Virus record (IMG/VR): IMGVR_UViG_3300033555_000001
Coordinates: 224,001-288,000 of that record
Origin: a virus
Lineage: Duplodnaviria; Caudoviricetes
Length of the DNA stretch: 64,000 nt
Reading direction: 5' to 3' (one strand)
Part shown: positions 50,455 to 59,849 of the stretch, one piece after another
Position numbering within the stretch: the stretch's first letter is position 1
Layout: every line of letters starts with the position of its first letter
Notes under the pieces: generated by a model
What the model was told of the DNA's origin: nothing
Database searches by the model: none
Seen by the model: only the letters and a program-made list of their open reading frames with translations
Program-made: the position numbers and the translations under genes

Positions 50455-50840
50455 GTAAAACAGCGTAAACTCAGTTTTTGAAAAGTTGAACAGGACGGGA
50501 GAGTCGGAGCTCCCCACCTCCACCAAAAGCGCTCTAGTAAGTCTGCAACGCGATCAGACTTTGAAGGCGGGAAACTTGGACTAAGCGTGACGCCTCTAAC
50601 AATTCTCTTAAGGGATTGATTTTGGGAGAGCCAAGTACTAGAGTGTTTTTGATGGGGGTGAATTGGAATCGACTGGCAAAATAGTAAACTACAGAGCGCT
50701 CGAGAGATGACCGACGTAATCGGCATAAAAACCTTAAATGCAAATGATAGCGCATTTTACGGAGACACACGCCTAGCAGCGTGATGCCCGCGAGGCTAAC
50801 CACCTTGTCACCGAACGGTAGGTAAGAAGTTTTACCGCTT
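50455..50840 (+). ncRNA. ssrA: circularly permuted (two-piece) tmRNA; tag ANDSAFYGDTRLAA
   Basis: Acceptor 3' end GGAC-GGGAG/CTCCC-CACCTCC-ACCA at 50493-50525 precedes the 5' end GGGGGTG-AATTGGAATCGAC at 50654; G3-U70 pair; tag 50740-50784; outer boundaries approximate. Confidence 0.88.
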
Positions 50841-52499: not shown

Positions 52500-52575
52500 G
52501 CCGATGTAGCTGAGCGGTTACAGCAGAGGATTCTAAATCCTAAGATCCCCGGTTCGAATCCGGGCATCGGCACCA
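52500..52575 (+). tRNA. amber suppressor tRNA (anticodon CUA)
   Basis: GCCGATG/CATCGGC acceptor, GCTG/CAGC D-stem, loop TT-CTA-AA, TTCGAAT, ACCA; 76 nt. Confidence 0.9.
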
Positions 52576-57822: not shown

Positions 57823-58198
57823 GCTCTTGTAGCAGATTAATTGATTTACCCGCGGATCTCCGGTCCGCTCTCTTAACTAGGATTATGAATACACTTAGCA
57901 CATTACTAGCCGCGATATCAGGGACGAGTTTACTCGCCTCAATGTCACCCAGCGCGAGCACATATCCGCGAGTAAGGACTCTCAGCTAAAAATCATAATT
58001 TGATTACAGCCTCGAGGGTCCTGATGAAAGTCACGACCCTCGAGTTGCATCCGAAAGAAATTGCTGGACCTGGCGAAATAAATTGTACATGTAATAGAAG
58101 TAGAGTTATAATGAATCTCTGAACGCTGCGAACAACATCCAGCGAGTAACAAGATCTTTAACAACTTAGAACACTATTTGAGACTTAGAGATAGGTCT

Positions 58199-58479: not shown

Positions 58480-58713
58480 ATGAATATCTTAAGTCTACAA
58501 GAACAAATCTTAAGTCTACAAGAACACAGAGATGGTTTCTACGTGGTGAGTAACGTGGTGAGTGATGACGTTGGCGACACGATTTGCGTTACTGTTTTCA
58601 GACACAACGGTGAAAAATGGGTACGAAAAATTGGTTACCCAGGTGTTTTACCAACTCTTCCATTTGTTGATATAATGATGAATGAAGATCCACAACTTAA
58701 GACTTACGACTAG
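58480..58713 (+). CDS. hypothetical protein with internal 21-bp duplication (58486-58526)
   Basis: AAGGA RBS; ILSLQEQ ILSLQEH. Confidence 0.55.
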   Translation: MNILSLQEQILSLQEHRDGFYVVSNVVSDDVGDTICVTVFRHNGEKWVRKIGYPGVLPTLPFVDIMMNEDPQLKTYD

Positions 58714-58770: not shown

Positions 58771-58866
58771 AACTCTAAAGCTGATGAAATGGTAAACGTG
58801 GCTCCGATCAGGAGCCGAGCACACCGCAAGGTCCTCTTACAGGTTCGAGTCCTGTCCACCAGAGTT
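58771..58866 (+). pseudogene. degenerate Leu/Ser-type tRNA-like element
   Basis: Class-II D-loop and perfect T-arm, but 5-nt anticodon loop and mismatched acceptor. Confidence 0.5.
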
Positions 58867-58880
58867 CAATGAGATTTTAA

Positions 58881-58976
58881 CCGTACTGATGAGCTCTGTA
58901 GAGAGCGAAACGAACAGTGAACAGCCGATCGAGCGCTTGGTGGCAGCTCTCGACGCAGTAGCTGTCTCGTATACGG
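58881..58976 (+). ncRNA. type I hammerhead ribozyme
   Basis: CCGTA-CTGATGA-GCTCT/AGAGC-GAAA-CGA...TCG-TA-TACGG; cleavage predicted after 58971 (GUA). Confidence 0.85.
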
Positions 58977-59046
58977 GCTTGCCTAATGGGTAGGGAAACG
59001 CACTTGCAATGCGATGCTAGGAGATCGTTACTCCTCAGGTCCACCA
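58975..59046 (+). tRNA. tRNA-Ala(TGC), atypical
   Basis: GGGCTTG/CAGGTCC with G3-U70, CT-TGC-AA, ACCA; D region about 3 nt short. Confidence 0.65.
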
Positions 59047-59055
59047 GAATTTATT

Positions 59056-59141
59056 GTTGTTTTAGCTTAAGAAGAGCGTCGGGTCTGCCAATATTATTGG
59101 TGGACCGGGAGGAGTAGGTTCAAGTCCTACAGACAGCACCA
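59056..59141 (+). tRNA. tRNA-Gly(GCC)-like with 12-nt insertion in the anticodon loop
   Basis: GTTGTTT/AGACAGC, T-arm GTAGG/CCTAC, CT-GCC-A then insert. Confidence 0.45.
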
Positions 59142-59154
59142 GTTTTACAATTAA

Positions 59155-59228
59155 CAGAGATTATGATAGTGGTAGTCGTCCTCGTCTGGACCGAGGAAGC
59201 GGAAATTCGATTTTTCCATCTCTGACCA
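59155..59228 (+). tRNA. tRNA-Pro(TGG)
   Basis: CAGAGAT/ATCTCTG (C1-G72, A73), TC-TGG-AC. Confidence 0.78.
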
Positions 59229-59494: not shown

Positions 59495-59567
59495 GCAGGA
59501 TTTCTCCTGAGAGAGAACTCACCCTTCCAAGGTGATGGACCTGGTTTGAATCCAGGATCCTGCTCCA
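59495..59567 (+). tRNA. tRNA-Gly(TCC)
   Basis: GCAGGAT/ATCCTGC, CT-TCC-AA, U73-CCA; D-loop atypical. Confidence 0.78.
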
Positions 59568-59772: not shown

Positions 59773-59849
59773 AGCGGGTTAGAGAAGAAGTCATCTCGCC
59801 GGCCTCATAAGCCGGAAATCACGTGGAGCATTTCCCGTACCCGCTACCA
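59773..59849 (+). tRNA. tRNA-Met(CAT)
   Basis: AGCGGGT/ACCCGCT, CCGGC-CTCATAA-GCCGG; atypical T-loop. Confidence 0.8.

Follow-up and report, generated by a model that had tools for sequence, protein, structure and literature searches.

A conserved type I hammerhead motif with a long stem III, placed against tRNA 5' ends in the tRNA clusters of jumbo phages

Ever since hammerhead ribozymes were discovered in large numbers in bacteria and phages in 2011, their role there has been an open question. In that year, many bacterial and phage hammerheads were described, including operons that contain several ribozymes, in a paper where tRNA occurs only in the title of a reference (Perreault et al., 2011; PMC3088659). 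Another small self-cleaving ribozyme, the HDV-like theta ribozyme, has been reported at the 3' ends of tRNAs in gut phages and proposed to act in the maturation of tRNA ends, in a study that leaves hammerheads unmentioned (Kienbeck et al., 2024; PMC10879173). In the searchable full-text literature, which covers subscription journals so thinly that absence is unproven, we found no natural pairing of a hammerhead with a phage tRNA cluster, and the statement of a preceding sequence-only reading of this DNA, that hammerheads are known in such clusters, found no source there. As engineered constructs, fusions of cis-acting hammerheads to tRNAs were reportedly made by Fechter and colleagues in 1998, giving transcripts with any 5' base.

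Here, we analyzed a 64,000-nt stretch of viral DNA (hereafter the window), which comprises bases 224001-288000 of a 310,728-bp IMG/VR virus record. The sequencing runs listed for the locus are all DNA and none RNA; a single one, from an ice metagenome, contains the full stretch, and the best of these runs is probably the source sample. The major capsid gene of the phage is of the T4 type (Gp23 family, 303 bits). The 3' quarter of the window is taken up by a plus-strand tRNA cluster. Within this cluster, a complete type I hammerhead motif at 58881-58976 overlaps an atypical tRNA-Ala-like gene at 58975-59046 (positions are those of the window, and features are on the plus strand, unless stated otherwise). 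We identified nine further distinct homologues in T4-like jumbo phages and metagenome contigs, so that the subfamily has ten members in all.

The subfamily agrees with the previously described type I hammerheads in its CUGANGA/GAA core, the G10.1-C11.1 and A15.1-U16.1 pairs, the N-U-H cleavage site, the three-way junction in which stem I is open and the location between phage genes. It differs from them in a stem III of 55-75 nt with a loop-E-like internal loop in place of a short hairpin, in a stem I of 5-7 bp that ends at or inside a tRNA gene, and in being undetected by Rfam. With theta ribozymes it has in common that a small ribozyme, predicted here to cleave itself, abuts a phage tRNA and can be proposed to serve the maturation of a tRNA end. 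However, theta ribozymes belong to another class (the HDV nested double pseudoknot), lie in the 3' trailer and are associated with suppressor tRNAs and recoding, whereas the window element lies 5' of its tRNA and has a hammerhead core. The engineered fusions resemble it in the upstream hammerhead, in a stem I that uses the 5' nucleotides of the tRNA and in the 5'-OH end; they are cut exactly at +1, whereas the cut predicted here is at -3 (-6 to -19 in relatives), and a leader remains.

The hammerhead motif and the tRNA-Ala-like gene

As read from the sequence, stem I is formed by CCGUA (58881-58885) and UACGG (58972-58976), and the latter strand consists of three leader nucleotides (58972-58974) and of nucleotides 1 and 2 of the tRNA (58975-58976). 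The 5' strand is preceded by UUAA (58877-58880), whose last A, directly before stem I, is a usual feature of the wider hammerhead group described below, and is followed by core nucleotides C3-A9 (CUGAUGA, 58886-58892), by stem-loop II (58893-58906; GCUCU at 58893-58897, loop GUAG, AGAGC at 58902-58906) and by G12, A13 and A14 (58907-58909). A 61-nt stem III (58910-58970) comes next. According to the hammerhead consensus, it begins with the A15.1-U16.1 pair (58910 with 58970), and the scissile bond is predicted 3' of H17, between A58971 and U58972. All core positions thus agree with the hammerhead (C3, U4, G5, A6, N7, G8, A9, G12, A13 and A14, the pair G10.1-C11.1 at 58893/58906, the pair A15.1-U16.1 and an H17 that is not G), and the topology is that of type I, with stem I open and loops closing stems II and III. 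The sequence-only reading had proposed a full catalytic core, a cut after GUA at 58971, a 3-nt leader UAC before the tRNA and a stem I that shares tRNA nucleotides G1 and G2. It was right in placing every one of these elements, and the same register of stem I is found in G001 (tRNA-Ala) and in L108 and L112 (tRNA-Ser). Going by established hammerhead chemistry, cleavage would leave a 2',3'-cyclic phosphate on A58971 and a 5'-OH on U58972.

A descriptor scan found this single site in the window, compared with chance expectations in shuffled 64-kb windows of 0.04 matches under loose settings and about 0.003 under strict ones, and it was also the one type I match in the whole 310-kb genome. A loose type II match outside the window (G000:C1:48424-48605, minus strand), with stems of 5, 4 and 3 bp over 182 nt, is probably due to chance. 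A perfect 10-bp hairpin (CCUCGAGGGU / ACCCUCGAGG) was also noticed at 58010-58043 in an ORF-poor stretch; its loop starts with C CUGAUGA, and it is incomplete as a hammerhead under the descriptor scan.

The MFE fold of 58870-58985 (RNAfold) is exactly the hammerhead three-way junction. Its energy is not lower than expected from shuffled sequence (z = 0.04), so the fold energy itself is not evidence. For the whole 210-nt precursor the MFE fold is a different structure that is not the hammerhead, and for the tRNA-Ala-like gene it is the cloverleaf; energies and z-scores were uninformative for hammerhead, precursor and tRNA alike.

At gathering thresholds, Rfam, in which we considered the hammerhead models RF00163, RF00008 and RF02275-7 (clan CL00010), reported no ribozyme in the window. 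With permissive filters over 1 kb, one hammerhead match was obtained, a local HH9 match over the core and stem II with 12.8 bits against 52 (E = 9.3), and the best model for relatives in the subfamily was Hammerhead_3 with 23-28 bits against a gathering threshold of 48.5. A comparison with Rfam, which had been suggested as a check together with the sequence-only reading, therefore gave no hammerhead model at threshold, and the window ribozyme is filed under none of them. This is because of the long stem III and the short open stem I. No HDV-like Rfam match was present in the window either.

The tRNA-Ala(UGC)-like gene at 58975-59046, in which G58975 and G58976 also complete stem I, has an encoded CCA, G3:U70, the anticodon loop CUUGCAA, the T-loop AUCGUUA and a short D region with a 5-nt D-loop and no U8/N9 linker. 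Its score of 27.0 bits with Rfam RF00005 is below the cut-off of 29, and it is missed by default ARAGORN and found at -ps80. The earlier description of this gene as tRNA-Ala thus holds as far as G3:U70, the UGC anticodon and the cloverleaf are concerned, although the gene is atypical and escapes both detectors at their usual settings. Among the four tRNA-Ala homologues, 7 of 17 predicted pairs are compensated, the CUUGCAA loop and the ACCA end are invariant, and the tRNA-Ala identity elements (G3:U70 and anticodon UGC) are present in every one. The linked tRNA-Ala genes represent a conserved atypical paralogue, for which ARAGORN places the anticodon at position 30-32 and Rfam gives a score below threshold or none; canonical tRNA-Ala genes occur elsewhere in the same clusters. 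Linked tRNAs of the subfamily are mostly atypical in general, with low or absent Rfam tRNA scores in six of eight lineages. The genome G003 (97% complete) contains a homologous atypical tRNA-Ala that has no ribozyme upstream, which implies that the ribozyme is accessory and not obligatory.

Homologues in other phages and selection on the fold

The capsid protein was used as a query and recovered 60 related viral loci. When the core pattern was searched over 17 capsid-related records, the same element was detected in four genomes, two of which (G004 and G008) have identical copies, and the copies of related phages sit inside tRNA clusters. A family-specific pattern added four metagenome lineages, and a broader pattern added one viral lineage (L131, identical to L191). 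A covariance model (R1) built from eight sequences matched one copy each in G000, G001, G004, G005 and G008, that is, in 5 of 18 records. With this model, no ribozyme was found in the other 13 related records, including G002 and G003 (97% complete), and no subfamily member in the cultured relatives RsoM2USA, XacN1, Xoo-sp13 and RAS14. A weak R1 match in G007 (17.6 bits) had no tRNA context and was dropped.

The subfamily pattern was absent from 185,579 prokaryote genomes, and an exact search of IMG/VR for the core plus stem II gave no match. Comparison of the locus and the ribozyme with GenBank phages by blastn returned no more than tRNA-Tyr matches, chance 19-mers and cores of other hammerheads. 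Two neighboring proteins (an L,D-transpeptidase and Bax1-I) recovered no related viral loci as queries, and the ribonucleotide reductase gene was useless as a lineage marker. RAS14 (Stenotrophomonas phage, OP752703.1), a cultured jumbo phage, has a different hammerhead-like motif that scores weakly (18 bits) and contains an extra U after A9 (L214:1501-1585, minus strand); it lies about 375 nt downstream of an ochre-suppressor tRNA.

In all ten distinct members, the core is invariant (at C3-A9 except N7, and at G12, A13 and A14) and the GUA site is kept. In the MAFFT alignment, 96.6% of cells are paired, compared with 31-48% in slid controls, and eight pairs have changed on both sides; none of 500 shuffles reached the observed percentage paired, the number of double-change cells or the covariation score. 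A model-fitted alignment, which leans towards structure, gave 97.2% paired cells (slid controls 33-47%) and compensation in 16 of 26 pairs. Compensatory changes affect four of the five stem I pairs in the wider alignment (A5), or three of five within the subfamily alone, and the variants of this stem include CCGUA/UACGG, CCGUG/CACGG, ACGCA/UGCGU, UCGCA/UGCGA and longer forms. Stem II of the relatives is GCUGG/CCAGC, from which the window differs at two pairs, both of them compensated. On comparative grounds, the existence of homologues with such compensatory changes settles that the motif is more than a chance match, is real and is under selection as a hammerhead. To judge from the alignments, purifying selection is strong in divergent hosts and acts on the core, on the helices and on the loop of stem III.

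Loop II is the point at which the window copy is an outlier among its relatives. It is GUAG, or UGUAGA on a 4-bp stem, instead of the 7-8 nt (UGARANY) found in relatives, with which the window shares the A-rich 5' flank. With the short loop, a tertiary contact between loop II and the stem I side, which hammerheads need for activity at low, physiological Mg, may be weakened; visual inspection of the flanks revealed no consistent complement to loop II that could form a pseudoknot. One could suppose that the site is a chance match or an inactive relic, considering this unusual loop, the lack of an Rfam match and the unexceptional fold energy. We consider this highly improbable, given the expectation of only 0.003-0.04 matches per window and ten distinct members with an invariant core and 16 compensated pairs, including the two pairs at which stem II of the window differs.

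The stem II of the relatives also led to a much larger set of hammerheads. In 85 IMG/VR contigs, the hammerhead core occurs together with GCUGG/CCAGC, and these contigs contain 53 distinct complete type I ribozymes, such as that of Pseudomonas phage phita81A (PQ738200.1). The consensus of their loop II is YGARAYY and their median stem III is 14 nt long; an A at -1 to stem I is present in 46 of the 53 and AA in 29. No Rfam hammerhead match was obtained in the five loci of this group that were tested. The likeness of the subfamily to this group consists of stem II and loop II (in the relatives), the A-rich 5' flank and the type I topology. On the other hand, most ribozymes of the group combine a stem III of about 14 nt with a GUC cleavage site in place of GUA and have no tRNA within 400 nt, and only members with a long stem III lie in tRNA clusters; in the window copy, stem-loop II has been remodeled as well. 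The window ribozyme thus belongs to a tRNA-cluster offshoot of this common phage group, set apart by the long stem III. That the subfamily derives from a widespread phage hammerhead group undetected by Rfam is rather likely in our view and forms part of our best explanation. Four contigs (L162, L168, L173 and L196 of IMG/VR) carry tandem, near-identical short type I hammerheads 411 nt apart.

The stem III module

Comparative alignment resolves stem III of the window into several parts, and the helices covary. A basal helix with a one-base bulge (58910-58917 with 58962-58970) leads to an internal loop, in which UGAACA (58918-58923) faces GCAGUAG (58955-58961). Beyond it are the 5-bp helix IIIb (58924-58928 with 58950-58954), a 2-nt bulge (58929-58930), helix IIIc of at least 3 bp in the family (58931-58934 with 58946-58949 in the window) and a variable tip, which is the apical loop at 58935-58945. 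Throughout the family, the internal loop has GAA, any nucleotide and A in its 5' strand and AGUA facing them in its 3' strand, without exception, while the helices on either side covary. The sequence-only reading had described a structured insert in stem III built on TCGAG and CTCGA. Both segments are indeed present within the long stem III (58929-58933 and 58949-58953), and RNAfold pairs them with each other. This pairing is distinct from the comparative register and, although both are possible in the sequence of the window, the comparative data favor the latter for the distal part because only that register fits all members.

AGUA opposite GAA in the right strand orientation is the signature of the bulged-G motif known as loop E or sarcin-ricin, a common site of protein binding and tertiary contacts. 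By this sequence signature, we take the stem III internal loop of the window to resemble the loop E / sarcin-ricin motif. The likeness consists of the invariant AGUA/GAA in correct orientation, flanked by non-Watson-Crick positions, and it is a likeness of signature. To our knowledge, a loop E motif has not been described as part of a hammerhead stem III. The distal part of stem III is dispensable for hammerhead catalysis, as minimal hammerheads demonstrate. Its conservation in spite of this implies an added function, and a likely role for the loop-E-like module is to serve or control the cleavage step by binding a protein or through a tertiary contact. The earlier suggestion that the insert is a ligand- or protein-binding module fits the invariant GAA/AGUA loop and the covarying flanking helices in general terms, which falls short of proof.

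The same conservation might be read differently. The product could be the ribozyme body itself, a stable small RNA of about 90 nt whose stem III module binds a protein, with the hammerhead making an exonuclease-resistant cyclic-phosphate 3' end and the nearby tRNA merely giving a processing site or a transcription unit. An internal loop that is invariant and distal helices that covary, though dispensable for catalysis, would be expected for such an RNA, and it is only members with a long stem III that lie in tRNA clusters. However, this explanation does not account for the position of stem I, whose 3' end lies directly against or overlaps the first nucleotide of tRNAs of four identities. The supposed RNA would also lack a defined 5' end, and conservation of the upstream spacers does not extend to the whole family. 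We therefore regard a ribozyme-body product as unlikely, though worth keeping in mind.

Position against tRNA starts and the proposed processing

In 8 of the 10 members, the 3' end of the ribozyme is no more than 14 nt from the 5' end of a tRNA, and four tRNA identities (Ala, Ser, Leu and Thr) are involved. The ribozyme overlaps the tRNA by 2 nt in G000 and G001 (tRNA-Ala) and in L108 and L112 (tRNA-Ser(UGA)). The gap is 0 in L109 (tRNA-Leu(UAG)) and in L131 (a low-scoring class II tRNA), 6 nt in L115 (tRNA-Ala), 14 nt in G005 (tRNA-Thr) and 115 nt in G004/G008 (tRNA-Ala). The distance to the preceding tRNA is variable and ranges from 17 to 250 nt. Under random placement of the ribozyme within its spacer, we roughly estimate the odds of a gap of 0 or less at about 1 in 70 to 1 in 200 for each of three or four independent junction types; the members, however, are few and some have common ancestry, which makes the placement statistics non-independent. 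The 115-nt insert of G004/G008 (L099:3451-3565), between the ribozyme and the atypical tRNA-Ala, starts with GG in the tRNA register and ends with ACCA, and may be a decayed tRNA-like RNA.

The positions also bear on the idea that the element is a selfish or neutral mobile hammerhead cassette that lands in the spacers of tRNA clusters with no benefit to the phage. The distribution is certainly patchy (5 of 18 records, with absence from G002 and G003), the downstream tRNAs differ, and many unrelated phages carry ribozymes of the wider group, some of them in tandem pairs. Against this, placement is precise with respect to tRNA +1, purifying selection on core, helices and stem III loop is strong, and an unsystematic look revealed no mobility gene or terminal repeats. 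A cassette of this kind appears quite improbable to us.

Only when the ARAGORN threshold was relaxed did a degenerate tRNA-Leu(GAG)-like gene appear upstream of the ribozyme (58781-58863); its T-arm is intact, and it ends with CCACCA. A normal tRNA-Leu(GAG) gene, syntenic with it, lies upstream of the ribozyme in G001, G004/G008, L115 and L131. Further upstream is a sigma-70-like promoter match (TTTACC, 18 nt, TATAAT, with TG) at 58647-58676, identified by consensus match, and no terminator-like site occurs between it and about 59400. Promoter-like sites upstream and the lack of a terminator before that point are consistent with one transcript. In three lineages (L097, L099 and L109, corresponding to G001, G008 and L109), a structured spacer element (ACACGAGGC ... 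GUGAGCGUGG hairpin ... CAGGG) lies about 70-95 nt upstream of the ribozyme; it was rejected as a core of the family owing to its occurrence in these three lineages only, and upstream spacers are not conserved family-wide. An unrelated AT-rich 90-kb phage contig carries another type I hammerhead with a long stem III in a cluster of 17 tRNAs (L089:7518-7618, minus strand), located 66 nt after a tRNA-Ser and about 280 nt before a tRNA-Leu.

Our best explanation, which we consider reasonably probable on the comparative data, is that the element is a genuine type I hammerhead of a tRNA-cluster subfamily and severs a polycistronic tRNA transcript just 5' of a tRNA. Self-processing of such a transcript had already been proposed by the sequence-only reading and remains the best reading of the locus; we infer cleavage here from motif, conservation and position. 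The tRNA cluster would be transcribed as one long RNA, with the tRNA-Leu-like sequence followed by the ribozyme, the tRNA-Ala and then the tRNAs at 59056-59138 and 59155-59228. Stems II and III would fold first, during transcription, and stem I would close next, with the three leader nucleotides and tRNA nucleotides 1 and 2 as its 3' strand, whereupon the RNA would cut itself between A58971 and U58972. The upstream piece would then consist of the tRNA-Leu-like RNA and the ribozyme body and end in a 2',3'-cyclic phosphate, and the downstream piece would start with 5'-OH-UAC and carry the atypical tRNA-Ala together with the tRNAs behind it. Stem I (5 bp) would come apart, and the acceptor stem would be completed. 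Since the predicted cut leaves a 3-nt leader, RNase P would still be needed, and the host enzyme presumably trims the UAC. Points that speak against this reading are the doubtful gain from a cut that leaves work for RNase P, the failure of Rfam hammerhead models, the short loop II, the unexceptional fold energy and the different MFE fold of the precursor, the lack of the ribozyme in G002 and G003 and the 115-nt gap in G004/G008.

It has been suggested from the sequence that folding of the ribozyme and of the acceptor stem are mutually exclusive. This is not supported, as only 2 of 7 acceptor pairs are involved, and such an overlap allows at most mild competition and not a switch. The point matters for another explanation, in which processing is conditional and either a factor bound to the stem III module or competition of the acceptor stem with stem I sets the extent of cleavage and thereby the yield of mature atypical tRNA-Ala. 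The two nucleotides shared by both stems, the conserved module that has no catalytic role and the mostly atypical nature of the linked tRNAs (6 of 8 lineages) would suit such control. Nevertheless, it is doubtful: besides the limited competition, stem I has no overlap with the tRNA in several members, ligand-type and riboswitch families of Rfam gave no match at the locus, and G003 has the same tRNA without a ribozyme.

Processing just 5' of a tRNA, as preferred above, could also be part of a more specific role. Hammerheads with a long stem III might be a dedicated device on the 5' side of tRNAs, the counterpart of theta ribozymes on the 3' side, that frees mostly atypical tRNAs without host endonucleases and whose module recruits a protein or docks on the precursor, so that cleavage is coupled to maturation. 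We put this forward tentatively, as a possibility with less than even chances. If true, it would provide a concrete cellular job for bacterial and phage hammerheads and, together with theta ribozymes at 3' ends, would point to the use of small ribozymes at both ends of phage tRNAs. The fixed register against the 5' ends of tRNAs of four identities in several phage lineages turns the question of function into a simple experiment on tRNA maturation. The conserved loop-E-like module on stem III could offer a hold for a protein partner. In addition, the locus brings to light a sizeable group of phage hammerheads that escapes the Rfam models.

Several further observations concern the genome and the cluster. 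A T4 Rnl1-type RNA ligase gene is present outside the window (G000:C1:85561-86169, plus strand; PF09511, 74.5 bits), and no RtcB gene was found in the phage genome; the phage plausibly has enzymes for 5'-OH and cyclic-phosphate ends, from which we draw nothing here. Several tRNAs of the window cluster are non-canonical. The tRNA at 59056-59138 (Rfam 37.4 bits) has about 22 nt, including a small hairpin, instead of an anticodon loop, and ARAGORN calls a 12-nt intron in it when introns are allowed. Two tRNA-like genes at 59495-59567 and 59773-59849 are missed by default ARAGORN. The window also contains an amber-suppressor tRNA with the anticodon CUA (52500-52575; 70 bits with the tRNA model) and a permuted, two-piece tmRNA gene (50462-50784; Rfam RF04321, 104.9 bits).
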